DNA from: Minisyncoccota bacterium
GTDB taxonomy: Bacteria > Patescibacteriota > Minisyncoccia > Phycocordibacterales > CAJBRS01
DNA: 64,000 bases
Assembly (NCBI GenBank): GCA_017881075.1
Contig: JADGRH010000003.1
Span: 128,682-192,681 of the forward strand
Reading direction: 5' to 3'
Below the pieces are notes generated by a model. It was not told where the DNA came from. It saw only the letters and a list, made by a program, of their open reading frames with translations, and searched no databases. The position numbers and the translations under genes were made by a program. Positions 2,450-48,883 of this stretch are shown one piece after another (the first letter of the stretch is position 1; every line of letters starts with the position of its first letter).

Positions 2450-2980
2450 ATGTTTAACCACCCACAAAATAATATTAAAGAAGGATATATTGCAGAGGGG
2501 ATGAGGGTGGCCGACTTTGGGGCGGGCGTCGGCCACCACAGTCTGCCAGTGGCTCGACAGGTGGGCGATAGCGGTGACGTTTACGCTATTGAAATTCAGA
2601 AAGATCTTTTGACCAAACTTCACCGAGAGGCCGAGCGGGAAAGACTTTTAAATGTTCATCCTATTCTGGGTGATTTGGAAAAAGCCGGTGGCAGCAAACT
2701 GGCGGACCAATTTGTAGACAGGGTTTTAATAATAAACACTCTTTTTCAGCTGGAAGAGAAAAAGATCGCCCTTTCGGAAGCTAAGAGAATTCTCAAGTCC
2801 GATGGCAGATTGGTTCTTATAGATTGGCAGGATTCCTTTGGCCAGATTGGCCCACATCCCGATCAGGTGGTGACTAAAGAAAAAGCTCTCTCTTTGACGG
2901 AGAGCGCCGGCTTCAAATTGGAAAAAGAATTTGAAGCCGGCAGTCATCATTACGGCATGTTATTCAATATTCCTAAGTGA
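2450..2980 (+). CDS. class I SAM-dependent methyltransferase
   Basis: Motif I-like VADFGAGVG followed by acidic and hydrophobic MTase motifs; 176 aa. Confidence 0.65.
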   Translation: MFNHPQNNIKEGYIAEGMRVADFGAGVGHHSLPVARQVGDSGDVYAIEIQKDLLTKLHREAERERLLNVHPILGDLEKAGGSKLADQFVDRVLIINTLFQLEEKKIALSEAKRILKSDGRLVLIDWQDSFGQIGPHPDQVVTKEKALSLTESAGFKLEKEFEAGSHHYGMLFNIPK

Positions 2981-2994
2981 TATAATTACCTAAC

Positions 2995-4299
2995 ATGAAC
3001 ACTTTCCAAGTAATTCTCCTTTGCGTTTTTGGCGGATTCTTAGTATTGGGAGTGATGATCTTTGCCATCGGCCACTTTGGCGGTCAGACTACCACTCCGC
3101 CCATCCTGATGTGGGGCACTATTTCTAATACGGAAATGCGCAGTCTGCTGGAACAAATGGATACAATGCAAAGAGGCATTCTGAAAGTTACCTATGTTCA
3201 GAAAAATCCTGACACTTTTGATAAAGACTTTACCGAGGCAGTGGCTACGGGTGTAGGCCCGGACCTGGTTCTAGTTAGCCAAGACAATATATTAACTGAA
3301 CGAAACAAGCTCTATATTATTCCTTTTGCTACCCTTGCCGACCGCACTGTTATAGATACCTTTATTCAAGAAGCTGATCTCTTTAAAACTTCCACAGGAT
3401 ATTTAGCCCTACCTTTTATTATTGACCCGTTAGTAATGTATTGGAATCGGGATCTGTTTCAAGGAGCGGGGTTGGCTAAACCGCCGCAATACTGGGACGA
3501 ATTTAGCGGAACCGTGGCGGTTCTGAATAAGAAAGACCAAGCAGGCAACATTTTGCAAAGCGCTATTTCTTTCGGCGAATTTAGTAATGTGGCAAACGCA
3601 AAATCAATAATTTCTACCCTGATTATGCAAGCAGGTAATCCAATTACCCTAATCGGCGCGGCTGATGCCACTACTCCGGATGAAGTGACGGCAGTCTTGG
3701 ATAAAAAATTCAATGCCGTGGTGTTGCCCGCTGAAGCGGCTCTTGATTTCTATACCCAATTTGCCGATCCATCGAGCCCGGTTTTTTCCTGGAATAAATC
3801 ATTACCTCTTTCTACCAATATGTTTCTGGCTGGAAATCTTGCTACCTACTTCGGCTTTGCCAGTGAATACGCTTCACTCCAGAGTAAGAATCCCAATCTT
3901 AATTTTGATGTCGCCCCTCTACCACAGCCAAGAAGCGCCAGCGCTAAAATCACTTTCGGCAATATGCTCGGTCTCGGCATAGTGAAGAATTCGCCCAATC
4001 TTAGTGAAGCTTATCGGTCACTCCGAGTTTTGATCGGAAGTGCCCCTTTGAATATTTTATCCGGTCTGAATAATCTACCACCTACTCGGCGGGATCTTTT
4101 GGCCACGTCGACTCCCCAAAGTGCCGCCCTGACAGTCTTCAATGCTGCCGCCCTACAGTCGCGAGGATGGCTTGATCCCAATCCACAATCCACCAACACG
4201 ATATTCTCCGACATGATAGAATCTATTAAGAGTGGTAGTCGTAAAATAGGCGATGCCATTGGGGAAGCTAATGTGGAGATTCAGGGTTTAATCAAATAA
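2995..4299 (+). CDS. membrane-anchored extracellular solute-binding-like protein (hypothetical)
   Basis: N-terminal TM helix followed by a periplasmic-binding-protein-like region; no precise family match by eye. Confidence 0.35.
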   Translation: MNTFQVILLCVFGGFLVLGVMIFAIGHFGGQTTTPPILMWGTISNTEMRSLLEQMDTMQRGILKVTYVQKNPDTFDKDFTEAVATGVGPDLVLVSQDNILTERNKLYIIPFATLADRTVIDTFIQEADLFKTSTGYLALPFIIDPLVMYWNRDLFQGAGLAKPPQYWDEFSGTVAVLNKKDQAGNILQSAISFGEFSNVANAKSIISTLIMQAGNPITLIGAADATTPDEVTAVLDKKFNAVVLPAEAALDFYTQFADPSSPVFSWNKSLPLSTNMFLAGNLATYFGFASEYASLQSKNPNLNFDVAPLPQPRSASAKITFGNMLGLGIVKNSPNLSEAYRSLRVLIGSAPLNILSGLNNLPPTRRDLLATSTPQSAALTVFNAAALQSRGWLDPNPQSTNTIFSDMIESIKSGSRKIGDAIGEANVEIQGLIK

Positions 4300-4300
4300 A

Positions 4301-4684
4301 ATGAGAGCCAATTTTCTTCTTTCTTTCAGTACAATTATACTCGTCTCACTCCTTCTTTTTTCTCCCGTTTATGGTCAGAATCCGAATTACGGAATTGTGG
4401 GATGCGGAAATAATTGCGATTGGGGACAGCTAATTCAATTGGGACAGAATATTATTGGTTACCTTGTTTTAATTGCTGGAAGTTTGGCCGCCATCTCCTT
4501 CGCTTATGCCGGGTGGCTTTATCTTACTTCCGGTGGCGACCCCTCAAAAGTTACAAAAGCCAAGGATATTTTTGTGAAAGTGGCGATAGGATTGATTGTC
4601 GTCTTGTGTGCCTGGCTGATCGTTCACGAGGTGCTTAAACTATTAGGCGTAAATCAAAACTATTCATTAATAAAGACATCATAA
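4301..4684 (+). CDS. TrbC/VirB2-like pilin-family small membrane protein, paralog 1
   Basis: Signal peptide, then two hydrophobic helices joined by a short charged loop (SGGDPSKVTKAKD); 127 aa; first of a tandem paralog array. Confidence 0.5.
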   Translation: MRANFLLSFSTIILVSLLLFSPVYGQNPNYGIVGCGNNCDWGQLIQLGQNIIGYLVLIAGSLAAISFAYAGWLYLTSGGDPSKVTKAKDIFVKVAIGLIVVLCAWLIVHEVLKLLGVNQNYSLIKTS

Positions 4685-4686
4685 AC

Positions 4687-5106
4687 ATGAATCGGAAAAT
4701 AATAATTATACTGATTATCTTTAATCTTTTTTTTATTACACCGGGTTTGGTTGTTGGCCAAGTAATACAAAGTAGTGGAATTGGAGGGCCTAGTCAATCT
4801 AGTGGAATTGGAGGAACTAGCCAATTATGTAATCCTCTGGGAGGGTGCAGTTCCAGTGGCCCCAACGATCTTACGGCATTCATTAAATTAGTATTGGCAG
4901 CAGTGGTGAAGATCGGGGCGGTAGTGGTGGTTTTCTTTGTTATCTATTCCGGCTTCCTTATGGTTACGGCCCAAGGCAATGAGGAGAAATTAAAGAAAGC
5001 CAAAAACGCCCTTCTTTGGACTTTAGTGGGAGCGGCCATTCTTCTGGGAGCCCAACTTCTAGCGGACGTTATTAGCAACACTATAACTGCCTTAAGTAAA
5101 CCTTAA
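4687..5106 (+). CDS. TrbC/VirB2-like pilin-family small membrane protein, paralog 2
   Basis: Signal peptide, Gly/Ser-rich linker, two hydrophobic helices with an AQGNEEKLKKAKN loop. Confidence 0.5.
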   Translation: MNRKIIIILIIFNLFFITPGLVVGQVIQSSGIGGPSQSSGIGGTSQLCNPLGGCSSSGPNDLTAFIKLVLAAVVKIGAVVVVFFVIYSGFLMVTAQGNEEKLKKAKNALLWTLVGAAILLGAQLLADVISNTITALSKP

Positions 5107-5116
5107 GCAAATAATT

Positions 5117-5419
5117 ATGTTTTTAATTCCACAATTAGTCTACGCCCAAGCCACCGATTTTAAAGGTTTGATTAAAATTGCTCTAGACTTATTGAAGAGC
5201 GTCATCCCAGTTATTATTGGGATAGGTCTGGTAGTCTTTCTTTTTGGTATCGTGCGCTACATTACGCCTGGGCAAAGCGAAGAAAAAATCAAAGAAGGGA
5301 GAAATATGATGATCTATGGTCTTATTGCCCTCTTTGTAATGACAGCCGTCTGGGGATTGGTGGGGGTCTTAACCAGTACTTTCTTTGGAGGGGCATTGAG
5401 CATTCCGCAGCTGCAATGA
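5117..5419 (+). CDS. TrbC/VirB2-like pilin-family small membrane protein, paralog 3
   Basis: IGIGLVVFLFGIVRYIT...GRNMMIYGLIALFVMTAVWGLV architecture shared with paralogs 4-6. Confidence 0.5.
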   Translation: MFLIPQLVYAQATDFKGLIKIALDLLKSVIPVIIGIGLVVFLFGIVRYITPGQSEEKIKEGRNMMIYGLIALFVMTAVWGLVGVLTSTFFGGALSIPQLQ

Positions 5420-5514
5420 AGTGAGAAGCCAAACTGCTATTTGACAGACTAAGACTTGGGCAAGCGCCCCGGAGCGGTCTGTCAAATGGCACGTTTGGCG
5501 AAGCACTTCATTGC
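5412..5514. repeat. palindromic repeat element family 1, copy A (between pilin paralogs 3 and 4)
   Basis: Core TAAGACTTGGGCAAGCGCCCCGGAGCG with inner arms TTTGACAGAC / GTCTGTCAAA and an imperfect outer 38-bp inverted repeat beginning GCAATGAAGTG and ending CACTTCATTGC; the 5' arm overlaps the stop codon of ORF 5117..5419. Confidence 0.8.
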
Positions 5515-5632
5515 CTGGACACAGAAGGAAATAATCCCCAGGTAAGACTTTAAAATTATTGAGATTGTGGTATGATTTAGAGGTAAATAGCTTATAAAAA
5601 GGTCATCGCTTATTAATTAAATTATCCTTTAA

Positions 5633-5995
5633 ATGAAAAAGTATCTCATTGGTTTATCAGTACTGGCCATGCCAGCAATAGCCTTCGGTCAGAATCTTCA
5701 GAATCTTAGCAATTTAGTCGGTTCCGCTACCCGTATTATCAATCAGTTAGTACCTTTTGCCATTGGCTTGGGTTTAATCGCATTCCTTTTTGGAATCGTC
5801 CGATACATCACCGCGGGCGCTGGGGAAGACAAGGCCGCCGCCAGAAACCTGATGATCTACGGCATCATCGCTCTCTTTGTGATGGTATCTGTCTGGGGAT
5901 TGGTCAATTTCATCGGCCAGGCTCTAGGTATCAATAATCCTGACACTCAACGAGCTCCAAATGTTCCTACCAATCAATCGTCAACTGGACTTTAA
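5633..5995 (+). CDS. TrbC/VirB2-like pilin-family small membrane protein, paralog 4
   Basis: Signal peptide; FAIGLGLIAFLFGIVRYITAGAGEDKAAARNLMIYGIIALFVMVSVWGLVNFIG; preceded by an extended -10 promoter TGgTATGAT at 5568-5576. Confidence 0.55.
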   Translation: MKKYLIGLSVLAMPAIAFGQNLQNLSNLVGSATRIINQLVPFAIGLGLIAFLFGIVRYITAGAGEDKAAARNLMIYGIIALFVMVSVWGLVNFIGQALGINNPDTQRAPNVPTNQSSTGL

Positions 5996-6014
5996 GATAA
6001 TCCATAAGCGGATT

Positions 6015-6398
6015 GTGAAAAAATACATAATTACTTCTTTGGTGTTACTACTGATATCGGTAATTTTACCTTTATTGGCCCATGCTCAATCTGGAGGAGG
6101 GGGTGGGGGAGGCTCGCCCTCTTTAGTGAAGCTGGTTCAATCTGGCACTAAAGTTTTAGACGCTCTCATTCCTTTCGCCATCGGACTTGGATTAGTGGTC
6201 TTTCTTTTTGCCATCATTAAATATGTGACGGCCGGTAGCGGCGAAGACAAGGCCGCCGCCAGAAACCTGATGATCTACGGCATCATCGCTCTCTTTGTGA
6301 TGGTATCTGTCTGGGGTCTAGTGAATTTTATTGGCGGTGCTTTGGGAATAGATCAGAACGCGAAGGTCTTGGCGCCGAGCTTACCCGAACTTCCATAA
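6015..6398 (+). CDS. TrbC/VirB2-like pilin-family small membrane protein, paralog 5 (probable GTG start)
   Basis: ORF track gives 5961..6398, but that overlaps paralog 4. In-frame GTG at 6015 gives a clean signal peptide, KKYIITSLVLLLISVILPLLAHA. A poly-Gly linker follows, then the same two-helix core as paralog 4. Confidence 0.5.
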   Translation: MKKYIITSLVLLLISVILPLLAHAQSGGGGGGGSPSLVKLVQSGTKVLDALIPFAIGLGLVVFLFAIIKYVTAGSGEDKAAARNLMIYGIIALFVMVSVWGLVNFIGGALGIDQNAKVLAPSLPELP

Positions 6399-6404
6399 TA
6401 ATAT

Positions 6405-6677
6405 ATGAATGTTGATGGCCTTCTGAAAAATATTGATAATCTCATCCTTAACCCTTTAATCTTTCTGATGTTCGGCGTAGCTCTGGTGGTTTTCTTGTGG
6501 GGTGTGGTGCAATTTATTATCGCCGCCGATAGCGCCGAAGGCAGAAAACTCGGCCGCCAAAGAATTCTCTATGGCATCATTGGTATGTTCATCATGGTCT
6601 CGGTCTATGGTATTCTCTACATCATTATCCATACCTTCGGTATCAGCTCCACTGCTCTTGATTCGGTGAAGAAATAG
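6405..6677 (+). CDS. TrbC/VirB2-like pilin-family small membrane protein, paralog 6
   Basis: Two hydrophobic helices with an ADSAEGRKLGRQR loop; no obvious signal peptide; 90 aa. Confidence 0.45.
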   Translation: MNVDGLLKNIDNLILNPLIFLMFGVALVVFLWGVVQFIIAADSAEGRKLGRQRILYGIIGMFIMVSVYGILYIIIHTFGISSTALDSVKK

Positions 6678-9921: not shown

Positions 9922-10022
9922 TTGAAGTATTTGGAGTCAGCACGAGCATTTTGGAGACTAAGACTTGGGCAAGCGCCCCGGAGCGGTCTCCAAAATGCTC
10001 GTGCTGGCGGAGAATACTTCTA
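9922..10022. repeat. palindromic repeat element family 1, copy B (intergenic infB-rbfA)
   Basis: Core TAAGACTTGGGCAAGCGCCCCGGAGCG flanked by a perfect 20-bp inverted repeat AGCACGAGCATTTTGGAGAC / GTCTCCAAAATGCTCGTGCT, plus further imperfect outer arms. Confidence 0.8.
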
Positions 10023-11544: not shown

Positions 11545-12810
11545 GTGAACAAGAAAAACAGCCACCAAAGAATTTATCTTGATTATGCCTCCATCACTCC
11601 GCTTGACAGTCGGGTGTTGAAAGTGATGAAGCCTCTTCTCGATTCCAATTTCGCCAATCCATCTTCTTTATATGCAGAAGGTGTCGAATCCAAAAAGATA
11701 ATGGAAAATGCCAGAAAGAGAGTGGCTAAAATTCTCTCGGCCCACGCCGATGAAATCATATTTACTTCAGGAGGTACTGAAGCCAACAATCTAGCACTCC
11801 TCGGACTTTTTCAATCAGCCAAAACAATTATAAAAAAACCACAGATCATTATCACCAACATTGAACATCCGTCCATTATGGAAGTTTGCAGCGAGATCAA
11901 AAGACGGGGAGGGAAAGTGAAAGTGGTGAGAGTGGAAGCAAACGGAATTGTTGATCCAAAAAAAATTAAAAAAGCCATTACAAATCGCACAATTCTAGTG
12001 TCGGTGATGTATGCGAATAATGAGGTTGGCACTATTCAGCCGATTCGAGAGATTGCGAAAGTTATCAGACAGTTTAGGAAAACCGACGGGCGAAACCAAC
12101 AACTTTTTGAGAGACTAAGACTTGGGCAAACGCCCCGGAGTGGTCTCTCAAAAAGTTCGTCCGCGAGCCCCTCTACTTTTCCGTATCTTCATACTGACGC
12201 CAGTCAAGCCGCTAATTATCTTGACCTCAATGTAGAGCGTCTCGGTGTTGATCTTATGACCATTGATGGAACGAAAATTTATGGGCCGAGAGGCGCCGGC
12301 TTTTTGGTCTGCCGGCGCCGGACGCCGCTCTGGCCGATCATTTTCGGCGGTGGCCAGGAAAGTGGGCGGCGGGCGGGCACCGAAAACCCGCCCGCCGCCC
12401 TAGGTCTCGCCACCGCCTTGGAAATCAGTCAGAGCGAGAAAAAAAGGGAGGCGGCCCGACTCTGCCGCCTCCGAGATTATTTTATTTCCGAAATCAGAAA
12501 ACATTTTCCAAAAGCAATCTTAAACGGCGATGCCAAAGAACGTCTTCCCAACAACGTTAACTTTTGCTTTCCCGATCTGGACGCGGAGTTTGCCGTGCTT
12601 CAATTGGATGCCAAAGGCATCGCCATCTCCTCGGTTACTAGCTGTCAGAATCTTAATACAGATTCGTCTTCTTATGTGGTCCAAGCCATTCAGACAAAAA
12701 ATTGTCAGAAAAGCTCATTACGTTTTAGTTTTGGTCGAAAAACCACTAAAAAAAATCTTGATTTTTGCTTAGAAGTTCTCTATAGTATAATTAATGGAAG
12801 AGCTCACTAA
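11545..12810 (+). CDS. cysteine desulfurase (class V aminotransferase, IscS/NifS-like) carrying an in-frame repeat-element insertion
   Basis: IYLDYASITPLD, GGTEANN and the PLP-lysine region FPYLHTDASQA. The ORF-track start at 11446 overlaps infB; the in-frame GTG at 11545 gives a conventional N-terminus. An approximately 33-aa insertion at nt 12085-12170 is encoded by repeat element 1. Confidence 0.85.
   Translation: MNKKNSHQRIYLDYASITPLDSRVLKVMKPLLDSNFANPSSLYAEGVESKKIMENARKRVAKILSAHADEIIFTSGGTEANNLALLGLFQSAKTIIKKPQIIITNIEHPSIMEVCSEIKRRGGKVKVVRVEANGIVDPKKIKKAITNRTILVSVMYANNEVGTIQPIREIAKVIRQFRKTDGRNQQLFERLRLGQTPRSGLSKSSSASPSTFPYLHTDASQAANYLDLNVERLGVDLMTIDGTKIYGPRGAGFLVCRRRTPLWPIIFGGGQESGRRAGTENPPAALGLATALEISQSEKKREAARLCRLRDYFISEIRKHFPKAILNGDAKERLPNNVNFCFPDLDAEFAVLQLDAKGIAISSVTSCQNLNTDSSSYVVQAIQTKNCQKSSLRFSFGRKTTKKNLDFCLEVLYSIINGRAH
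12101..12156. repeat. palindromic repeat element family 1, copy C (inside cysteine desulfurase ORF, in frame)
   Basis: AACTTTTTGAGAGAC-TAAGACTTGGGCAAACGCCCCGGAGTG-GTCTCTCAAAAAGTT with 13-bp perfect arms; translated in frame as QLFERLRLGQTPRSGLSKS. Confidence 0.8.
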
Positions 12811-16333: not shown

Positions 16334-16345
16334 GGGAACAAAAAA

Positions 16346-16379
16346 GAGAGGCCGGCACGTAGTGCCGGCCTCTCTTTTT
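16346..16379. terminator. rho-independent terminator after clpB
   Basis: 13-bp perfect stem GAGAGGCCGGCAC / GTGCCGGCCTCTC with loop GTA and a TTTTT tail; flanked by an A-run, so potentially bidirectional. Confidence 0.8.
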
Positions 16380-19490: not shown

Positions 19491-20540
19491 ATGAATCAAT
19501 CCATTATTAATATTGTTCAGAAAATTTTGTCGGACGCCTATGAATCAAAGGCGTCCGACATCCATCTAGATCCAACCAGAAATTTACTTCGGGTCCGATT
19601 TAGAGTTGACGGACTTCTCCAAGACAGAACATTTTTTCCAAAAGATCTGTCGCCGCCGATAATTTCTCGCCTAAAAGTCTTGGCCGGTCTTCGCATGGAT
19701 GAGCACCAAAGTGACCAGGATGGACGACTTCATTTCCAAATAAAGGATGAGCGAGTGGATATTCGTATTTCCATAGTCCCAACTTATTATGGAGAGAATG
19801 CTGTCTTGCGTCTGTTACATCGTCATCATGGCACTTTGTCTTTATCTAATCTTGGATTCAACAACAAGAGCATTGAAATGATCACGGAAGCTCTTCGAAA
19901 AACATCCGGAATGATCTTAATAACTGGCCCGACTGGCTCGGGCAAAACAACTACCCTTTATACTTTATTGGAGATGCTCAAAAAAGAGGAAGGCTCGATT
20001 GTTACCATTGAAGATCCGATTGAATATGCAATTGATGGAATTGAACAGATTCAGGTAAATCAGAGAAGTTCTCTGAACTTTGCTAATGGTTTACGAGCCA
20101 TTCTTCGACAGGACCCGGACATTATTATGGTGGGCGAGATTCGTGATAGGGAAACAGCCGCCATTGCTGTTAACAGTGCTCTAACTGGCCACCTACTTCT
20201 ATCCACCCTTCACACCAATGACGCCGTCTCTGCCATTCTCAGGCTCTACGACATGGGTATTGAGCCGTATCTCATCGCCTCAACACTCTCAATAATTATT
20301 GGACAAAGATTGGTCAGAAAAATTGGCCCCGATGACAGTTTCAGTGGGCGACTGGTCATAAACGAGATATTAATTGTAGAAGAGAATCTAAGAGAGGCCA
20401 TTATCAAAAAATCCTCTCGCGCCGAAATGGAAATCTTAGCGCGTCAAAATGGCTTAATCGGAATGCGCGAAGATGGATACGAAAAAGCATCCGCCGGCCT
20501 CACCTCATCTGCCGAGGTCTTGAGAGTGACGAATCTTTAG
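19491..20540 (+). CDS. GspE/PilB-family secretion ATPase (core domain only)
   Basis: Walker A GPTGSGKTT, Asp box, Walker B DPDIIMVGEIRD, His box TLHTND; 349 aa; lacks the N1 domain and zinc motif. Confidence 0.8.
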   Translation: MNQSIINIVQKILSDAYESKASDIHLDPTRNLLRVRFRVDGLLQDRTFFPKDLSPPIISRLKVLAGLRMDEHQSDQDGRLHFQIKDERVDIRISIVPTYYGENAVLRLLHRHHGTLSLSNLGFNNKSIEMITEALRKTSGMILITGPTGSGKTTTLYTLLEMLKKEEGSIVTIEDPIEYAIDGIEQIQVNQRSSLNFANGLRAILRQDPDIIMVGEIRDRETAAIAVNSALTGHLLLSTLHTNDAVSAILRLYDMGIEPYLIASTLSIIIGQRLVRKIGPDDSFSGRLVINEILIVEENLREAIIKKSSRAEMEILARQNGLIGMREDGYEKASAGLTSSAEVLRVTNL

Positions 20541-22197: not shown

Positions 22198-22767
22198 TTA
22201 TCCTTTGATTAATTTTAACAATGATATAAAATCTTCTACTCTGTGGGAAACTCTAATAATATATTTTGGAGTCTTTGTTGTTGAGATTTTATAGACATGA
22301 GCTTTGAAGCCAAGGTTTTTTATCATACTCATTACATCCAATGCCAGGCGCTCTATAATTGTTGTGAAATTTACCATGTTGTAGCCTCTATCGAAATATA
22401 TACAACCATCAGTTTGAAATAAACCTCGTAAACATTCAATTGAATAAATCTCATTTTCTTTTATCCATCTAGGAACCGTCACATCCTGTTTAAATTTGGA
22501 ACCCTCCTTTGCTTTCCATCCAAGAAGATTTTCAAGGTGATTTGAATAACAGGAGACATCAAGGCAATTTTCACCCCGCTTAATAGTAGATATTTGATTG
22601 TTAGGAAACAGCTCTTTTAAAGATTTTATTATTGTATTTATTAGATTAGGATATTTTAAATCGCAACTAATCCTGAGTCTCACGGCTCGTCCATTCGAGT
22701 TGGAAAGATTGCCATCGCCGATAGCCAAGCCAATTACATATGCCTGTAGTCTTCGGTTAGGGCTTAT
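22198..22767 (-). CDS. LAGLIDADG homing endonuclease (free-standing, abutting tRNA-Leu; start codon uncertain)
   Basis: Two LAGLIDADG motifs, LAIGDGNL and LFQTDGCIY. The ORF-track start at 22848 lies inside the tRNA gene. No ATG or GTG occurs between the tRNA 3' end (22770) and motif 1; the only in-frame candidate is TTG at 22728. Confidence 0.8.
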   Translation of the reverse strand: MSPNRRLQAYVIGLAIGDGNLSNSNGRAVRLRISCDLKYPNLINTIIKSLKELFPNNQISTIKRGENCLDVSCYSNHLENLLGWKAKEGSKFKQDVTVPRWIKENEIYSIECLRGLFQTDGCIYFDRGYNMVNFTTIIERLALDVMSMIKNLGFKAHVYKISTTKTPKYIIRVSHRVEDFISLLKLIKG

Positions 22768-22769
22768 CT

Positions 22770-22854
22770 TGGTGCCAGAGGTGGGACTTGAACCCACAAG
22801 CCTTGCGGCACGCGATTTTGAGTCGCGCATGTTTGCCAATTTCATCACTCTGGC
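22770..22854 (-). tRNA. tRNA-Leu (CAA), CCA encoded
   Basis: Reverse complement gives acceptor GCCAGAG / CTCTGGC, anticodon stem CGCGA/TCGCG with loop CTCAAAA, a long variable arm, T-arm GTGGG-TTCAAGT-CCCAC and a CCA tail. Confidence 0.85.
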
Positions 22855-22955: not shown

Positions 22956-23933
22956 ATGTCACAATTTTTTAGCGATTCAATATTTTGGATAGAGGTGGAA
23001 AAAGTGAAGCCGAACCCCTTCCAGCCGCGCCGGGATTTTGACCAGGCACGACTTCAGGACCTTGCTGATTCCATTCGGATGTATGGCGTCCTCCAGCCAT
23101 TGGTGGTGACGCGTCACGAAGTGGCGCGGGAGGATGGCGGTCTTCAGACCAAGTACGAATTGATCTCCGGCGAACGGCGGCTTCGGGCTTCAAAATTAGC
23201 AGGCCTTTCCCAAGTGCCAGTCATTATCCGCGCCCAAGAAGAAAATGAAAGAGTAAAATTGGAATTAGCAATCATTGAGAATCTTCAGCGGGAAGATCTA
23301 AATCCTGTTGATCGCGCCCGCGCCTTCAAACGGCTCGCCGAAGAATTTAATTTCAAGCACATTCAGATTGCCGAAAAGGTGGGAAAGAGTCGCGAATATG
23401 TCACCAATACTATGCGACTACTCTCTCTACCGGAAGAAATGTTGAATGCGGTTTCTGCAGGGAAAATTTCTGAAGGTCACACCCGACCACTCTTAATGTT
23501 GGTTGATCGGCCGGAAGAGCAGGTAACTCTTTTTAAGGAAATTGTTTACAAGAAATTAACTGTTCGCGAAGCGGAAGCTATTGCTCGCCGAATTGCTTTT
23601 GATCGAGTTCGCAAGAAAGAGCGAGCTTTTGATCCGGAACTTGTTGAGCTGGAAGAAAAATTAACCGAGTCGCTCGGCACCCGAGTGCAAATAGAGCGCA
23701 AGGATCAGGGCGGGCGACTAGTCATTGATTTCTTTTCCAATTCCGATTTGCAGGGAATTCTTGATTTGGTGAAATCCAATATACCAAAACAGAGAACCGA
23801 AATGATGGAAAAATTCATCGCGGCCGCACCCGAGCCCGAATCGGTTTCCGACGTATCCAATGACGATCGTTCTACCGAGGAAAAAAAGTCCGACGAAGAA
23901 GACCTCTACTCCATCAAGAATTTCTCTATTTAA
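22956..23933 (+). CDS. parB: ParB/Spo0J-family partition protein (no adjacent parA)
   Basis: ParB box ISGERRLRASKLAGLSQVPVII, HTH region, C-terminal dimerisation and an acidic tail. Confidence 0.85.
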   Translation: MSQFFSDSIFWIEVEKVKPNPFQPRRDFDQARLQDLADSIRMYGVLQPLVVTRHEVAREDGGLQTKYELISGERRLRASKLAGLSQVPVIIRAQEENERVKLELAIIENLQREDLNPVDRARAFKRLAEEFNFKHIQIAEKVGKSREYVTNTMRLLSLPEEMLNAVSAGKISEGHTRPLLMLVDRPEEQVTLFKEIVYKKLTVREAEAIARRIAFDRVRKKERAFDPELVELEEKLTESLGTRVQIERKDQGGRLVIDFFSNSDLQGILDLVKSNIPKQRTEMMEKFIAAAPEPESVSDVSNDDRSTEEKKSDEEDLYSIKNFSI

Positions 23934-26190
23934 CCCCGGCTAGTTTATGCGGATTATGGTTCGGACAGACTTTGCTCGAGCATCGTTCCGGAATAGTTTT
24001 TGTTCCTTCCATCATTAGTGATCCGCACATCGGACAAAGGTTGCCGGTCGGTTTTGCTTTGATGGCAGTTTTGCATTGAGGGTAATTTGAACAGCTGAAG
24101 AAAAGGCCGAATTTGCCTTTTCTCTCCACCATAAAACCTTTTTTGCAGACGGGACATTCTACACCGGTAGAATTTTGTTTCTCCAGCTCCTTATCTTTTT
24201 TAATATATTTGCATTTCGGATAATTGGCGCAGGAAATGAAGGCACCGAATTTTCCTTGGCGAAGAACGAGGTCGCCATCATCAAGCGGGCATTTCTCGCC
24301 GGTTAATTTTGGTCCCTCAATTTCTTTTCCTTCAATAGTCCTAGCTCCGGCGCATTTTGGGAATGTTCCGCAACTCATGAATTTGCCGTTCTTACCGAGC
24401 TTAATGATCATGGCGGCACCGCAGACCGGACACTTAAATTCGTCCGGAGCGGCGCCGAGATTAGTGATTTTTTCCATAGTTTTATCTTTTGATTTAACCT
24501 CTTTTGTAAAAGGAGTGTAAAAGTCTTTTAAAGTTTTAGCGTATTCGCGTTTCCCGGAGGCAATATCATCCAGCTCATCTTCCATTTCGGCCGTGAACGA
24601 ATCACTGATGTAATTGGTGAAATGATTTTCCAGAAATGTTGAGACCACATCTCCGGTATCAGTTGGCACCAAGGCCTTATTAATCTTTTCAACATAGCCG
24701 CGGTCATCCAGGGTCTTAATGATTGAAGCATAAGTAGACGGTCGGCCGATGCCTCGTTTTTCCAATTCTTTCACCAGCCCGGCTTCGGAGTATCTTGGTG
24801 GCGGTTGGGTTTCTTTTCCCTCGGAATCAATCTTCAGAAGATTTAATTTCTCTCCAAGCTTCACTTTTGGCAACACCACATCTTCGCCACTCGCTTCCGG
24901 ATCGGCAGAGAGCCAGCCAGGAAACAGAACTCGCTGTCCGGTGATAGCGAAATCAGGAATGCAGAGGTCAGACCTCTGCATTGGTTGCTTTGCAGAGGTC
25001 TGACCTCTGCATTCCTTGTTGTTTACATTCGCTGTAATTTTACTTCGAAGCATTTTAGCCTCCGCCATCTGTGATGCCGCCGTTCTCTGCCAGATCAGTC
25101 GGTAAAGTTTGTGCTGTTCGTCGTTAAGGCCGGCTGTTTCTACCGACATGTGGCTGGGGCGAATAGCCTCGTGTGCCTCCTGAGCATTTTTACTTTTAAC
25201 GGCATAAGTGCGGGGACTCAAATATTCTTTACCGTATTTTTTCTCAATAATTTCAAATATTTGTCCTAACGCTAATTTACTGAGGTTGGTGCTGTCGGTT
25301 CTCATATAGGTGATGTGACCGGACTCGTAAAGTTTTTGAGCAATACCCATGGTTCGGGACGGAGCGAAGCCAAGACGCGAACTAGCCGTTTGCTGAAGAG
25401 TGGAAGTAATAAATGGGGCACGCGGAGCCCGCTTTACTTCGGTCTCAGAAAGATCGACTATCTTCCAGTCGTCTTTATGGATCTCTCCACCAATTTTCAA
25501 TATTCTTTTAACTTCTTTTTCATCGCGCGGTTCCTCCGAACACACTAAGGAAAATCTTTGTGCTCGGAGCCCTGAGGTATTCGAAGGGCTACTCTCAACG
25601 TCAGCATTAATGACCCAGAATTTTTCCGGTTTAAATGCCCGAATTTCCCTTTCCCGTTCCATAATGATTCGAAGGGCGGGAGATTGAACTCGGCCGGCAG
25701 AGAGGCCGTAACGCACTTTTTTCCAGATGAGACCTGATAGGTCGTATCCCACCAAGCGATCCAGGACGCGGCGTGCTTCCTGGGCGCGTCGGAGATTTTG
25801 ATCAATTTCCCTCGGGTTTTCAAGGGCTTCAAGAATAGCCTCTTTAGTAATTTCATTATAAGTTACTCTCTGGATTTTGGTTTTATCGAGGCCTAAATCC
25901 AAGAGCTCGCCGATGTGCCAAGCAATGGCCTCACCCTCGCGGTCCTCGTCAGTGGCCAGAATAATTTTCTCTGCCTTTTTAGCTAGATGTTTCAGCTCAG
26001 CAACCACCTTCTCCTTTCCCTTACTGATTTCGTAATGAGGAATGAATCCACCTTCAATATCGATGGCTTTCTTATTGCTTTTTGGCAGATCACGAACGTG
26101 GCCAACGGAAGCTTTCACATCGTATTCATCGCCAAGATATTTTGAAATAGTCTTGGCTTTGGCGGGCGATTCTACAATTAATAACTTCAT
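23926..26190 (-). CDS. topA: DNA topoisomerase I, with in-frame palindromic element insertion
   Basis: Toprim N-terminus MKLLIVESPAKAKTISKYLG, an active-site Tyr region and C-terminal Zn-ribbon repeats (CPxCG); 754 aa. Repeat element 2 at 24967-25025 encodes ECRGQTSAKQPMQRSDLCI. Confidence 0.95.
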   Translation of the reverse strand: MKLLIVESPAKAKTISKYLGDEYDVKASVGHVRDLPKSNKKAIDIEGGFIPHYEISKGKEKVVAELKHLAKKAEKIILATDEDREGEAIAWHIGELLDLGLDKTKIQRVTYNEITKEAILEALENPREIDQNLRRAQEARRVLDRLVGYDLSGLIWKKVRYGLSAGRVQSPALRIIMEREREIRAFKPEKFWVINADVESSPSNTSGLRAQRFSLVCSEEPRDEKEVKRILKIGGEIHKDDWKIVDLSETEVKRAPRAPFITSTLQQTASSRLGFAPSRTMGIAQKLYESGHITYMRTDSTNLSKLALGQIFEIIEKKYGKEYLSPRTYAVKSKNAQEAHEAIRPSHMSVETAGLNDEQHKLYRLIWQRTAASQMAEAKMLRSKITANVNNKECRGQTSAKQPMQRSDLCIPDFAITGQRVLFPGWLSADPEASGEDVVLPKVKLGEKLNLLKIDSEGKETQPPPRYSEAGLVKELEKRGIGRPSTYASIIKTLDDRGYVEKINKALVPTDTGDVVSTFLENHFTNYISDSFTAEMEDELDDIASGKREYAKTLKDFYTPFTKEVKSKDKTMEKITNLGAAPDEFKCPVCGAAMIIKLGKNGKFMSCGTFPKCAGARTIEGKEIEGPKLTGEKCPLDDGDLVLRQGKFGAFISCANYPKCKYIKKDKELEKQNSTGVECPVCKKGFMVERKGKFGLFFSCSNYPQCKTAIKAKPTGNLCPMCGSLMMEGTKTIPERCSSKVCPNHNPHKLAGVK
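24967..25025. repeat. palindromic repeat element family 2, copy 1 (inside topA, in frame)
   Basis: GGAATGCAGAGGTCAGACCTCTGCATT, spacer GGTTGCTT, TGCAGAGGTCTGACCTCTGCATTCC. Each half is itself a perfect palindrome, and the two halves are reverse complements of each other. Confidence 0.85.
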
Positions 26191-27282: not shown

Positions 27283-28563
27283 ATGTTAGACATTAAATTC
27301 ATTCGGGGAAACAAGGATGTTGTCCAAGAGGGAGCTAAAAAAAAGCATATGCCATTCGATGTGGATGCATTGCTGGTTGTAGACGAAAAACGTTGTGCTC
27401 TTTTGGCTGAAATTGAGTCAAAAAAAACAGAACAAAATCAATTTAGTGAGAAGATTGTGAATGTCTCCAATCCTGCCGAAAAAATGAAACTGATCGATGA
27501 GATGAAAGTGGTCAAAGAAAATTTAAATAAAAAAGAAGAAGAATTCAAACTAGTAATTTCCGAATGGCAAAAGCTCATGATTCAAGTGCCGAATGTTCCA
27601 GACATATCTGTACCGGAAGGGAAAGACGAAACTGAGAATCAACAAATAAAAACTTGGGGGGAAATTCCAAAATTTGATTTTCAGCCAAAAAATCACATTG
27701 AAATAATGGAAGGGCTCGACATGATCGATCTGGAGCGAGGAGCTAAGGTGTCGGGCTTTCGGGGTTATTTCTTAAAAAATGAAGCAGTTATTCTAAACTT
27801 TGCCATTTGGCAATTTGTTTTTAATGAAATGATGCAGGCAGGAGATTTTATTCCTCTTCTCACTCCGTCCTTAGTAAAAAAAGAGACTTTGCTCGGCACG
27901 GGGTATCTACCTCAAGGAGAAGAAGATTTATACAAAACTCAAGACGGAACTTATTTAGTCGGCACCTCGGAGGTGCCGACTATGAGTTACCACAGCGATG
28001 AAATTATTCCAGCGGAGAAACTGCCGATTAAATTTTTAGCTTTCTCGCCTTGTTTCCGTCGAGAAGCGGGTAGCCACGGCAAAGACACCAAGGGGATCTT
28101 TCGGGTTCATGAGTTTTATAAATTTGAACAAGTCATTTTATGCGAGGCCAATCATGAGGAATCAGTTAAATATCATGAGGAGCTGACGAAGAATGCCGAA
28201 AAATTACTCCAGGTCCTTCAATTGCCATATCGAACTCTGCTTATTTGCGGAGGGGATCTTGGTCTGGGGCAGGTAAAGAAATATGATCTGGAGGCGTGGG
28301 TGCCGTCAGAGAACATCTATCGCGAAACTCACTCCGCTTCATATTTTCATGATTTTCAGACTCGTCGTTTGAATATTCGTTATCGAGATCAAGATGGAAA
28401 ACTAAAGTTTGCTCATTCTTTAAACAACACCGCCCTTGCTACTCCCCGAATCCTTGTTTCTATAATCGAAAACTATCAGCAAGTGGACGGCAGTATCAAA
28501 ATTCCCGAAGTATTACAAAAATATATGGGAGGTAAAAAAATTATCGGACCTAAGAAAGTTTGA
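27283..28563 (+). CDS. serS: serine--tRNA ligase
   Basis: N-terminal coiled-coil arm plus class II aaRS motifs (FRxE, GxGxGxxR-like). Confidence 0.9.
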   Translation: MLDIKFIRGNKDVVQEGAKKKHMPFDVDALLVVDEKRCALLAEIESKKTEQNQFSEKIVNVSNPAEKMKLIDEMKVVKENLNKKEEEFKLVISEWQKLMIQVPNVPDISVPEGKDETENQQIKTWGEIPKFDFQPKNHIEIMEGLDMIDLERGAKVSGFRGYFLKNEAVILNFAIWQFVFNEMMQAGDFIPLLTPSLVKKETLLGTGYLPQGEEDLYKTQDGTYLVGTSEVPTMSYHSDEIIPAEKLPIKFLAFSPCFRREAGSHGKDTKGIFRVHEFYKFEQVILCEANHEESVKYHEELTKNAEKLLQVLQLPYRTLLICGGDLGLGQVKKYDLEAWVPSENIYRETHSASYFHDFQTRRLNIRYRDQDGKLKFAHSLNNTALATPRILVSIIENYQQVDGSIKIPEVLQKYMGGKKIIGPKKV

Positions 28564-33315: not shown

Positions 33316-33630
33316 GCACTTTGATTTGAATGTAATGAAAATCGAAGTCACTGAGGAGTTTACGACGAAGTGCCAGAATAATGAACTCTGCTTTGTCTAA
33401 GATTCAAATCTCAGTGTCTTCGAAAGAATGACGGGGTCAGGAGCCCTTTTATAAAAGTTTTGACAAAATAAAGTAAAGAAATATAATGTAGTCGTGGTAA
33501 GTTAGGGGCTAATAAAAACCGCAGAGATGCGGTTTTTATTTTTAATTTAACTTTCATTTGAATCTATTTCATCAGCTGTTGGTATATTTATGTTGATGTG
33601 AAATGGTAATTCACATCGTGCCAAGGAGAA

Positions 33631-33690
33631 ATAGGGACAGGTGCATTATTTTGGTGAAAAACGGAAAAATAATGCACCTGTCCCTATTTT
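33631..33690. repeat. perfect 23-bp inverted repeat hairpin
   Basis: AATAGGGACAGGTGCATTATTTT, 12-nt loop, AAAATAATGCACCTGTCCCTATT; lies between tRNA-Gln and the end of the minus-strand gene. Confidence 0.8.
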
Positions 33691-38740: not shown

Positions 38741-40687
<1,947 letters not shown>

Positions 40688-40690
40688 GAT

Positions 40691-43014
<2,324 letters not shown>

Positions 43015-46795: not shown

Positions 46796-48883
46796 ATGGC
46801 GAATTTTAAAATATTTACAAAATTCAAACCGGCGGGAGACCAGCCCAAAGCAATTGAAGATTTAGTAGGCGGAATAAAAAAAGGCTTCCGACATCAAACC
46901 TTGCTCGGAGTGACTGGTTCGGGAAAAACTTTCACTGCGGCCAATGTTATTGCTGCTATTGGGAAGCCGACCCTGGTAATTGCTCACAACAAGACTTTGG
47001 CCGCTCAATTAGCCCAAGAATACCGTGAATTCTTTCCTGATAATGCCGTCCACTACTTTGTTTCCTACTACGATTTCTATCAGCCGGAAGCCTATTTGCC
47101 GGTGACAGATACCTATATTGAAAAAGAGGCTCAAATTAACGAGGAAATTGAGCGCCTGCGTCATGCCTCCACGCAGGCGCTCCTAACCCGCCGCGACTGC
47201 ATCATCGTCGCGTCTGTCTCTTGTATTTACGGCTTGGGCTCGCCAGTAGAATATGAAAAAGTAAATCTCCGCATTCAGAAGGAAATGGTAGCTGATCGCG
47301 CCGATCTCATTCGTAAATTTATTCATATTTATTTTGACCGCACTAACGCCGACCTCACCCCGGGTCAATTCCGAGCGCTCGGTAACGCCGTTGAAATCAT
47401 GCCGGTAAACGAACGGATCATTTATAAAATGGATTTAGTAGAAGGAAAGATAGAAAAGATTTTGAAAATTGATGCCATTACTCGCCGAATCATTGAAGAA
47501 GTTGAAGTATTTTTTCTTTTTCCAGCCAAACACTTTGTCACTCCGGAGGATGAGCGAGTACGAGCTATTGAAGATATTAAAAACGAATTAGAAGAACGGC
47601 TGGCTCAATTTAAAAAGGAAGGGAAATTACTTGAAGCGGAACGCATCAAGCGGCGAACCAATTATGACTTAGCTCTTATTCGCGAAATTGGCTACTGCAA
47701 TGGAATTGAGAATTATTCTCGTCATTTCTCTGGCAAAAAGGAAGGGGAGCCACCAGATACTCTACTCTCATATTTTCCACATAATAAAGACGGAAGCGCC
47801 GATTTTCTGACCATTATTGATGAATCGCATGTGACCGTTCCCCAGATTGGTGGAATGTATGCCGGAGACGCTTCGCGAAAACAAAATTTGGTTGAACACG
47901 GCTTCCGGTTGCCTAGTGCTCGCGACAATCGACCTTTAAGATTTGACGAATTTCAAGAACGAATTGGTCAGACCATCTATACTTCGGCTACGCCGGGTAA
48001 ATTTGAGATGGAACACAGCGACCCTTCGAGGAACTCAGGGCAAGGCTTAGTAGCGGAGCAGTTAATTCGACCAACGGGACTGGTTGATCCAATGATTGAG
48101 GTCAAACCAGTGATAGAAAAACCCTTCGACAAAGCTCAGGGCAGGGGCTACAAAGGTCAGATACAGGATTTTATTGAACAGGCCGAAATTGAAGTGAAAA
48201 AAGGCAATCGAGTTATTGCTACCACTTTGACTAAAAAGATGGCAGAAGATCTAAGTGAGTATTTAAAAGAAAAGAAAATCAAAGCCGAATATCTTCACAG
48301 CGAGATTCAAACTTTGGATCGCATTCAAATATTGACCGAATTTAGAAAAGGGAAGTTTGACATTATTGTCGGGGTCAATCTTCTGCGAGAAGGACTGGAT
48401 CTACCGGAAGTGACACTGATCGGCATCTTGGATGCAGACAGGGAAGGATTTCTCCGTTCCGAAACATCATTAATTCAAACAATTGGCCGCGCCGCTCGAA
48501 ATATTGATGGCCGGGTGATTCTTTACGCAGACCATGTGACTGGATCAATGGAAAAGGCTATGAGCGAGACGAAACGCAGACGCGATCTTCAGATTGCTTA
48601 CAACACTAAGCATGGCATCACTCCGAAGACCATAATTAAGGCCATCCAAGACATCACCGATCAGATCGAAAGCGAGCACGCCAAGACATTAAAAACCCTC
48701 CTTCAATTTGACGAAGCTCGATTCCAAAAAAACCCCAAGAAATTAATTGAAGAGAAACAAAAACAGATGAATAATGCGGTAAAGGTACTAGATTTCGAAA
48801 CAGCCGCTATTTTGAGAGATGAGATTAAAGAGTTGTTGTTGAAGATGGAGGGAAAGTCTTCAGTTAAAGCTAAAAAGAAGTAG
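46796..48883 (+). CDS. uvrB: excinuclease ABC subunit B
   Basis: Helicase motifs GVTGSGKT and DESH, beta-hairpin, and a C-terminal UvrB/UvrC interaction helix; contains two lineage-specific insertions at nt 48021-48147. Confidence 0.95.
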   Translation: MANFKIFTKFKPAGDQPKAIEDLVGGIKKGFRHQTLLGVTGSGKTFTAANVIAAIGKPTLVIAHNKTLAAQLAQEYREFFPDNAVHYFVSYYDFYQPEAYLPVTDTYIEKEAQINEEIERLRHASTQALLTRRDCIIVASVSCIYGLGSPVEYEKVNLRIQKEMVADRADLIRKFIHIYFDRTNADLTPGQFRALGNAVEIMPVNERIIYKMDLVEGKIEKILKIDAITRRIIEEVEVFFLFPAKHFVTPEDERVRAIEDIKNELEERLAQFKKEGKLLEAERIKRRTNYDLALIREIGYCNGIENYSRHFSGKKEGEPPDTLLSYFPHNKDGSADFLTIIDESHVTVPQIGGMYAGDASRKQNLVEHGFRLPSARDNRPLRFDEFQERIGQTIYTSATPGKFEMEHSDPSRNSGQGLVAEQLIRPTGLVDPMIEVKPVIEKPFDKAQGRGYKGQIQDFIEQAEIEVKKGNRVIATTLTKKMAEDLSEYLKEKKIKAEYLHSEIQTLDRIQILTEFRKGKFDIIVGVNLLREGLDLPEVTLIGILDADREGFLRSETSLIQTIGRAARNIDGRVILYADHVTGSMEKAMSETKRRRDLQIAYNTKHGITPKTIIKAIQDITDQIESEHAKTLKTLLQFDEARFQKNPKKLIEEKQKQMNNAVKVLDFETAAILRDEIKELLLKMEGKSSVKAKKK
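48021..48147 (+). repeat. pair of 25-27-nt direct repeats inside uvrB, read in different frames
   Basis: ACCCTTCGAGGAACTCAGGGCAAGG at 48021 and ACCCTTCGACAAAGCTCAGGGCAGGGG at 48121. They encode DPSRNSGQG and KPFDKAQGRG, at two positions where UvrB homologs are shorter. Confidence 0.6.

Follow-up and report, generated by a model that had tools for sequence, protein, structure and literature searches.

In-frame pairs of a REP-type palindrome in topA and uvrC of a Patescibacteria genome and a RAYT-like transposase gene flanked by the same unit in related genomes

INTRODUCTION

Systems made up of repetitive extragenic palindromic (REP) elements and their REP-associated tyrosine transposases (RAYTs) have been studied mostly in Proteobacteria. 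The two partners, REP or REPIN elements and the RAYT (TnpA-REP), are together called REPtrons and have been described in E. coli, Pseudomonas, Stenotrophomonas, and other bacteria (PMC3116915, PMC5581495, PMC3733652). Here we analyzed a 64-kb stretch (the window) of contig JADGRH010000003.1 from an uncultured, ultra-small Minisyncoccota bacterium of the phylum Patescibacteria, in which a 21-nt palindromic unit forms two pairs, one lying in frame within topA and the other in frame within uvrC.

Intragenic REP monomers and dimers, encoding about 20 to 30 amino acids, have been reported in Opitutus terrae, Thioalkalivibrio, Thauera, Xanthomonas, and R. conorii; they often occupy the replication and repair genes uvrA, uvrB, dnaE, and recB, and it has been proposed that they are tolerated in flexible loops (PMC3733652). 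The main text of that study mentions neither topA nor uvrC, a statement that does not extend to its host-gene table. In R. conorii, the Rickettsia palindromic elements (RPEs) RPE-4 and RPE-6 are short CGTC-tagged REPs without a dedicated transposase (Di Nocera et al. 2013, PMC3733652). Hairpins can also be created and maintained by template switching, which homogenizes their arms and inverts their spacers (PMC8604942, PMC8794818). Considering the window pairs next to these systems, we find it probable that they represent a REP-type repeat with a RAYT-like partner, which was dispersed, landed in tolerant loops, and grew by template switching.

RESULTS

Two palindrome pairs within topA and uvrC

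The unit, T-GCAGAGGTC-W-GACCTCTGC-A, consists of two 10-nt arms around a single center base, 21 nt in total, and occurs four times in the window, arranged as two pairs. Its core, GCAGAGGTCWGACCTCTGC, is located at 24961-24979 (center A), 24992-25010 (center T), 53440-53458 (center A), and 53468-53486 (center T), so that 4 matches were seen versus 0.00 expected from shuffled sequence. No further core copy was found in the 64 kb even with up to three mismatches allowed, in agreement with a preliminary description of the window that had been made from the letters alone. All four units are free of mutations, and the two loci that share the identical 21-mer are 28 kb apart.

The first pair (24960-25011) lies in topA (23926-26190, minus strand), which encodes a type IA topoisomerase of 754 residues with Toprim, Topoisom_bac, and Zn-ribbon domains, and the second (53439-53487) lies in uvrC (52279-53661, plus strand), which encodes a protein of 460 residues with GIY-YIG, UVR, and UvrC RNase H domains. 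Each pair is about 48 to 52 nt long, and both are ordered with the A-centered unit before the T-centered one. In topA, unit 1 (24960-24980, TGCAGAGGTCAGACCTCTGCA, center A on the plus strand) is followed by a 10-nt spacer that forms the hairpin loop (24981-24990, TTGGTTGCTT) and by unit 2 (24991-25011, TGCAGAGGTCTGACCTCTGCA, center T); the full hairpin runs from 24955 to 25016, with 26-nt arms (24955-24980 and 24991-25016) that are 100% complementary and include AGGAA/TTCCT. In uvrC, unit 1 (53439-53459, TGCAGAGGTCAGACCTCTGCA, center A), an 8-nt spacer or hairpin loop (53460-53467, GGAAGATA), and unit 2 (53468-53487, GCAGAGGTCTGACCTCTGCA, center T) lie within a hairpin at 53436-53490 with 23-nt perfect arms, and the complementarity continues at 90% over 53428-53498, giving arms of 31 nt. 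The preliminary description had placed two such elements in frame in these genes on opposite strands, which is borne out in both long open reading frames (ORFs), and its uvrC coordinates were about right; those for topA were shifted by about 7 to 14 nt, and the spacer length of 6 to 8 nt that it gave needs correction to the values above.

As single-strand DNA, each pair folds into one long hairpin of -30 to -33 kcal/mol (z -9 to -12), and as RNA each again folds into one long hairpin, of -50 to -53 kcal/mol, in line with the structure predicted earlier. An Rfam scan of the window at gathering level returned tRNAs only, with no known RNA family over the hairpins. An intrinsic terminator was considered and rejected, because the window copies lie in mid-gene and have no T-run.

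The inserts occupy surface loops and are absent from homologs

Both pairs are read through in frame and encode the peptides ECRGQTSAKQPMQRSDLCI in TopA and AEVRPLQEDSRGLTSAS in UvrC, which had been quoted correctly. The TopA insert, at about residues 394-410, forms the tip of a β-hairpin, and its strand region presumably belongs to domain D2; the UvrC insert comprises residues 388-403 and lies in the RNase H-like nuclease domain, in the loop that joins a helix to the PIKLVAVVK strand. When E. coli TopA (4RUL) is aligned, a gap of 20 residues opens precisely where the insert lies, between two strands, and in T. maritima UvrC (2NRR) the loop is shorter, the insert falling between the helix and the strand that matches its PVVGLAK. 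An AlphaFold model of the window TopA, of mediocre quality (pLDDT 68) and used solely for the local strand-loop-strand picture, has strands at 378-388 and 414-423 and shows the insert as low-confidence coil. Mapped on these structures, both inserts lie in surface loops, and the earlier remark that the two proteins are shorter elsewhere at these points was correct for both.

The topA codons read ...AAC AAG GAA (TGC AGA ... CTC TGC) ATT CCT GAT, with the insert in parentheses. In the nearest TopA relatives, P0002 (82% identity), P0003 (80%), and P0004 (85 to 88%), the insert is absent, and a short variable loop leads directly into the conserved I-P-D-F motif. The nearest UvrC relative, P0122 (72% identity), likewise has no insert, and comparison with the orthologue at locus L075 (72% identity, conserved gene order) reveals at the DNA level the clean indel that the preliminary description had envisaged, here of 15 codons (45 nt), with no local source sequence for the insertion in that orthologue. 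Among the 240 top-ranking homologues of TopA and UvrC, not one has the encoded motifs RGQTSA, RGLTSA, AEVRPL, or QRSDLC, which favors a mobile repeat over an ancestral feature, as had been argued before.

We give almost no credence to the idea that the inserts are ancestral protein features or assembly artefacts. It would agree with the open reading frames and with the source being a metagenome-assembled genome (MAG), but not one of the 240 top homologues has the inserts, two sources, NCBI and Logan, hold the same TopA and UvrC proteins, and the unit occurs in many independent assemblies; the window TopA also matches a database entry exactly. Judged by these sequence comparisons, the view that a dispersed palindromic repeat has recently inserted in frame at both sites is supported. 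They would be translated as 15 to 17 extra residues and are probably neutral passengers, and their perfect stems of 23 to 26 bp may have a side effect on the mRNA.

The position of the units relative to the native codons differs between the two sides of each pair. The T-centered unit abuts native conserved codons, ATT CCT in topA and AGT CCG ATC in uvrC, and the A-centered unit lies with an inverted copy of the flank (AGGAA in topA, ACTT in uvrC) on the variable upstream side. Thus TTCCT in the topA hairpin is part of the native I-P codons and AGGAA is its inverted copy, a pattern that inverted duplication by template switching would be expected to produce.

uvrC also harbors a second in-frame insertion of about 20 amino acids (53088-53166), absent from the L075 orthologue, which is an inverted repeat of TCTGTCATCCTGG/CCAGAATGACAGA with a fold of -19.3 kcal/mol (z -4.1). 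No further copy of it was found in the window or in the other loci retrieved.

The palindrome is a dispersed repeat family in Patescibacteria

In a scan of one genome per species (596 Gb, with about 4 chance matches expected), the exact 19-mer was detected at 52 loci. A Kaiserbacteria MAG, CAVYCR01, holds 14 exact copies at 12 loci in at least 0.76 Mb, JAHJSK01 holds 8, and the 19-mer is also found in two Taylorbacteria MAGs, in RAAC4_OD1_1, and in one Saccharimonadales MAG. A metagenome scan with the 21-mer added 16 further loci, the exact unit being rare in that collection, and a viral-contig scan with the core gave 0 matches. When the palindrome-encoded peptides were compared with the protein database, 15 candidates were obtained, none of which reached a score.

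The Patescibacteria units are single or paired, often with a degenerate partner, and lie between genes or in frame. A family census with up to two mismatches yielded 45 nonredundant sites, 14 of them within long open frames, and in-frame copies were identified in the genes for MurB, MurE, TsaD, MiaA, a RecO-like protein, a ComEA-like protein, and in the transposase gene itself. Among oriented units, 36 of 41 have T at position -1 and A at +1, with nothing conserved further out; most single units extend their complementarity by this T/A pair alone, and long flank complementarity is not a family-wide trait. The variants hold their dyad symmetry by paired changes, such as GTAGAGG..CCTCTAC, ACGGAGG..CCTCCGT, and GCAAAGG..CCTTTGC. 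For the 12 pairs that could be scored, the two of the window included, the orientation is A-T in five, T-A in one, A-A in three, and T-T in three. The palindrome is thus a repeat family spread through Patescibacteria, in the class Paceibacteria and beyond.

Matches of the 19-mer in Chloroflexi, Limnocylindrales, and Clostridia were set aside as unrelated, since they are terminator-like hairpins with a T-run at seemingly orthologous loci and about 4 matches are expected by chance in a scan of this size. At L001, L004, L005, L008, and other Chloroflexi/Limnocylindrales loci, the 19-mer adjoins conserved G+C-rich structured sequence that is present in many MAGs; the 19-mer in the Chloroflexi loci is taken to be unrelated to the Patescibacteria repeat.

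The unit brackets a RAYT-like transposase gene in related genomes

In three related genomes, the unit directly flanks a RAYT-like Y1 (IS200-like) transposase gene. In Kaiserbacteria (L027), a Y1_Tnp gene of 227 aa (1294-1977; PF01797, 39 bits versus a cut-off of 23) has one pair of units at 1211 and 1240, 30 to 80 nt upstream, and another at 1966 and 1996, across the stop codon. In Taylorbacteria (L011), the gene at 2729-3409 has one unit at 2707, 22 nt upstream of the ATG, and one at 3398, at the stop codon; the two have opposite center bases and are GTAG-bearing variants. In JAHJSK01 (L042 and L025), degenerate units lie on both sides of the gene and one copy lies in frame inside it. A REPtron layout is therefore present in these relatives.

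A related transposase gene at L063 (58% identical) is bracketed by a different palindrome, CCCGAGGCCCGTCCTCGGG, a third copy of which lies in frame at the same internal position as the in-frame copy of L042 and L025. That this gene has its own palindrome indicates that the repeat type co-varies with the transposase, as in published REPtrons. The cognate palindromes within these two related RAYT-like genes (L042, 7893-7911, together with L025; L063, 6006-6030) could be self-targeting or could form a regulatory hairpin.

The transposase-like proteins share conserved HUH (N-H-x-H) and Y-x-H-x-N motifs and score 39 to 41 bits with Pfam Y1_Tnp, versus the cut-off of 23. The best PDB match of the transposase profile is E. 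coli TnpArep (4ER8, E=0.044).

Perfect intragenic hairpins are in excess in this lineage

To place the two pairs in their genomic context, perfect stems of at least 12 bp with loops of up to 60 nt were counted within long ORFs and compared with synonymous-codon shuffles. The window ORFs contain 12 such hairpins versus 0.30 expected, an excess of about 40-fold in coding DNA, and 6 versus 0.03 with stems of at least 14 bp. The close relatives L053-L057 contain 8 versus 0.32 expected, and control loci of Chloroflexi and Clostridia contain 2 versus 2.04. Window ORF hairpins with 12- to 19-bp stems lie at 2906-2941, 12364-12400, 19528-19560, 27956-27982, 39881-39929, 39963-40003, 41843-41873, 47150-47182, and 53502-53530, and several ORF hairpins fall in conserved native motifs, namely, those of SerRS, Tgt, the ATP synthase beta subunit, UvrB, UvrC, and IscS.

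The excess is accompanied by compensatory changes. In the tgt hairpin (39881-39929), which has a 19-bp stem, the upstream arm is rewritten to complement the conserved FGIIQ codons with no inserted sequence; at this site the window is 4 codons shorter than L075 and gap-free versus solved Tgt. The window and L054 share the serS hairpin (27956-27982), but where one of them reads GTC..GAC the other reads GCC..GGC, which changes V/T to A/A. In the uvrC hairpin at 53502-53530, L075 differs by a synonymous change from GCG to GCC and by the CGC-to-GGC change (Arg to Gly) that matches it, and in the uvrB hairpin (47150-47182) all eight synonymous stem codons are identical to those of L075, versus 0.49 gene-wide. 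These four hairpins were made in place, without insertion.

Such hairpins bear on a purely local origin of the window pairs, in which template switching would have built them in place with no transposase and the shared 21-mer would reflect convergence or copying between loci. The strong lineage-specific excess, the in-place hairpins of tgt, serS, uvrB, and uvrC, the extension of both window hairpins into native flanks, and their unrelated spacers all agree with it, as does the published role of template switching in creating and maintaining hairpins (PMC8794818, PMC8604942). Nevertheless, it leaves unexplained both why two loci separated by 28 kb, and dozens more in other orders, have one and the same 21-mer, and the bracketing of Y1 transposase genes by the unit, and the uvrC site is a clean 45-nt insertion whose orthologue offers no local source; we regard such an origin as unlikely.

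Alternatively, the stem itself might be selected, as an mRNA element that adjusts topA and uvrC expression (an RNase III target or a translational pause), as a DNA site for a dimeric protein, or as an uptake sequence. The uptake sequences of Neisseria and Haemophilus are short conserved motifs, often in inverted pairs, with about 1 per kb, and are reported to be enriched in genome-maintenance genes, a point in favor of a function of this kind. Published REPs are reported to be enriched in such genes as well (PMC3733652); moreover, the four window units are mutation-free, their stems of 23 to 26 bp are perfect and reach -50 to -53 kcal/mol as RNA, and the native uvrB hairpin is kept at 8 of 8 synonymous stem codons versus the background of 0.49. 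However, the host genes (MurB, MurE, TsaD, MiaA, TopA, UvrC, and others) are functionally unrelated, close relatives manage without the element, and the stems are strictly Watson-Crick and do not use G-U pairs, which indicates a process at the DNA level. Unlike uptake sequences, the unit has a density of only 4 per 64 kb in the window and about 14 per at least 0.76 Mb in the Kaiserbacteria MAG; a DNA uptake sequence was rejected, because the units are far too sparse for one. A selected functional hairpin or site thus appears quite unlikely to us.

Other hairpin elements were observed as well. The TopA loop of other Paceibacteria holds a second element (L056, 11129-11202; L057, about 3820-3890) whose 34-nt core, CTCGGAGCGATTAGGTACTCCGTTAAGCGGAGAG, is identical in the two lineages but oppositely oriented; the outer arm of the L056 element repeats, in inverted form, at least 14 nt of the native D-F-S-A codons. 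A second hairpin repeat family, with the conserved core GAGACTAAGACTTGGGCAAGCGCCCCGGAGCGGTCTC, occurs in the window at 5432-5486, 9941-9995, and 12098-12152, where the outer stems, of 15 to 21 bp, are perfectly complementary and differ from copy to copy; two copies are intergenic, and the third is in frame in an IscS/NifS-like cysteine desulfurase, in a stretch of about 35 residues that is inserted in comparison with 4R5F. Two very long perfect intergenic hairpins near tRNA genes, at 33629-33689 (24-bp stem) and 16341-16379 (18-bp stem), have no second copy in the window; they may act as terminators or be additional hairpin elements.

Other features of the window

Immediately downstream of a tRNA gene (22773-22854, minus strand) there is a LAGLIDADG-type ORF (22198-22854), and in the relative L053 a LAGLIDADG_3 gene is annotated at the matching place. 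At 4301-6677 there is a tandem array of small paralogous genes with the direct repeats D1 and D2 inside it; the first three genes of the array match T4SS_pilin (PF18895) in the annotation of L074.

DISCUSSION

According to the above-described analysis, a course of events may be proposed for the window pairs. A RAYT-like HUH/Y1 (IS200-like) transposase, whose gene would lie elsewhere in the genome, would have spread the unit in the form of a single-strand DNA hairpin, a step suggested by the REPtron layout in related genomes. Replication template switching (inverted-repeat arm homogenization) would then have doubled the landed hairpin, made it perfect, or lengthened it into the flank, as the flank complementarity and the lineage-wide excess of perfect intragenic hairpins suggest. 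Finally, selection would keep those copies that are stop-free, have a length that is a multiple of three, and lie in tolerant surface loops. It is from the relatives that we infer mobilization by a transposase in the window genome, presumably by the single-strand DNA route.

A number of observations weigh against this account. The window itself holds only two loci with the unit, and their spacers are unrelated in sequence, so the pairs are not copies of one REPIN and neither is a whole copy of the other. The expectation of the preliminary description that copies would recur was borne out in related genomes, which are multicopy (14 and 8 exact copies), and not in the close relatives L053-L057 and L075, where no unit copy was found; neither the 64-kb window nor about 80 kb from close relatives contains a Y1_Tnp gene. 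The best NCBIfam match of the transposase-like proteins, REP_Tyr_transpos, scores 39 to 44 bits and stays under the cut-off of 80, and at 226 to 262 aa these proteins are longer than the 165-residue solved chain of E. coli TnpArep. Unlike the REPs of REPtrons, the unit lacks a GTAG or CGTC tag and starts with GCAG, GTAG being seen in some variants only; unlike classical REPs, it has a low copy number; and unlike in REPtrons, pair orientation and spacers vary across genomes. Its near-perfect dyad symmetry would also suit the site of a dimeric protein that binds double-strand DNA.

The hairpin excess opens a broader possibility, which we put forward tentatively: a hairpin-writing regime specific to this lineage, in which template switching or selection for hairpins pervasively makes, perfects, and maintains coding inverted repeats in this group of Paceibacteria and the palindrome pairs are the most visible product. 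If so, this regime would rewrite protein loops and even conserved motifs by compensatory amino-acid changes and, starting from single landed REPs, would produce hairpins that are long and perfect. Hairpin-driven mutation would then be a major source of the odd protein insertions of the candidate phyla radiation (CPR) and a possible origin of REP-like repeats.

With a REP-like family and a distant RAYT-like transposase in genomes this tiny and gene-dense, such systems have a wider range than was known. In a gene-dense Patescibacteria genome, nearly every insertion strikes a gene, and a repeat that is read in frame concretely accounts for the origin of some insertions in Patescibacteria proteins that had no explanation. 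These genomes tolerate perfect hairpins of 23 to 26 bp in the middle of topA and of uvrC. The repeats can break assemblies and mislead the annotation of such genomes. The hairpin excess, together with arm co-evolution that costs amino-acid changes, offers a natural system for testing template switching, which could matter more than the repeat itself.

How, then, does the window repeat compare with the known systems? As in REPtrons, a short palindromic unit occurs singly or in pairs and a pair folds as one long hairpin, units bracket the transposase gene (here in related genomes), each type of transposase gene has a cognate palindrome of its own, arm complementarity is kept by paired changes, and the proteins carry HUH and Tyr motifs and match RAYT models best. 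Unlike in REPtrons, the palindrome here is almost perfect and its orientation is visible in the center base alone, the transposase proteins are distant (under the NCBIfam cut-off) and longer, and the host phylum is Patescibacteria. REPs are mainly extragenic, whereas both window sites are intragenic and about a third of the family sites (14 of 45) lie within ORFs.

RPE-1, for comparison, is about 100 to 150 bp long and encodes 30 to 50 amino acids. The window repeat resembles RPEs in its in-frame insertion into essential genes and its palindromic potential, and differs from them in its pair of about 50 nt, in having no sequence relation, CGTC tag, or longer shared consensus, and in the Y1 transposase that is associated with the unit in related genomes. 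A classical MITE, a miniature transposable element with inverted repeats, was rejected, since there is no direct target-site duplication, the flanks are inverted (AGGAA/TTCCT, ACTT/AAGT), and the length is about 50 nt versus 70 to 300 bp. A true relative of RPEs, or a MITE derived from an insertion sequence with terminal inverted repeats and target-site duplication, would share the hairpin potential and the insertion in frame in essential genes, which is documented for RPEs (PMC3733652), but this reading is very improbable, as it is already largely refuted by the anatomy: the pair of 48 to 52 nt has no direct end repeats, no CGTC tag, and inverted flanks, and the associated gene is a Y1/RAYT-like transposase.

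The published intragenic REPs are close in that they, too, are in-frame monomers and dimers, whereas those are GTAG- or CGTC-tagged and belong to other phyla; compared with them, the loop positions and the clean indels against close relatives are demonstrated here directly (PMC3733652). The likeness to template-switch hairpins (PMC8794818, PMC8604942, PMC5453318) lies in arm homogenization, flank extension, spacer inversion, and compensatory changes, traits of this kind being visible in tgt, serS, and uvrC and in relatives' TopA loop; unlike a dispersed family, template switching is a process of local mutation and could not by itself move a 21-mer between loci or genomes. In an incomplete search of the literature, no published link of REP or RAYT to Patescibacteria was found. 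As far as we could tell, it is the host lineage that is new, REP/RAYT systems and in-frame REP dimers being known already from other phyla (PMC3733652), and the earlier claim of a new system was overstated. The same preliminary description had called the elements RPE-like, a term that fits their in-frame behavior and not their identity, given a 21-nt REP-type unit, a pair of about 50 nt, and flanking positions at Y1 transposase genes in relatives; the closest class of the window repeat is REP/RAYT.

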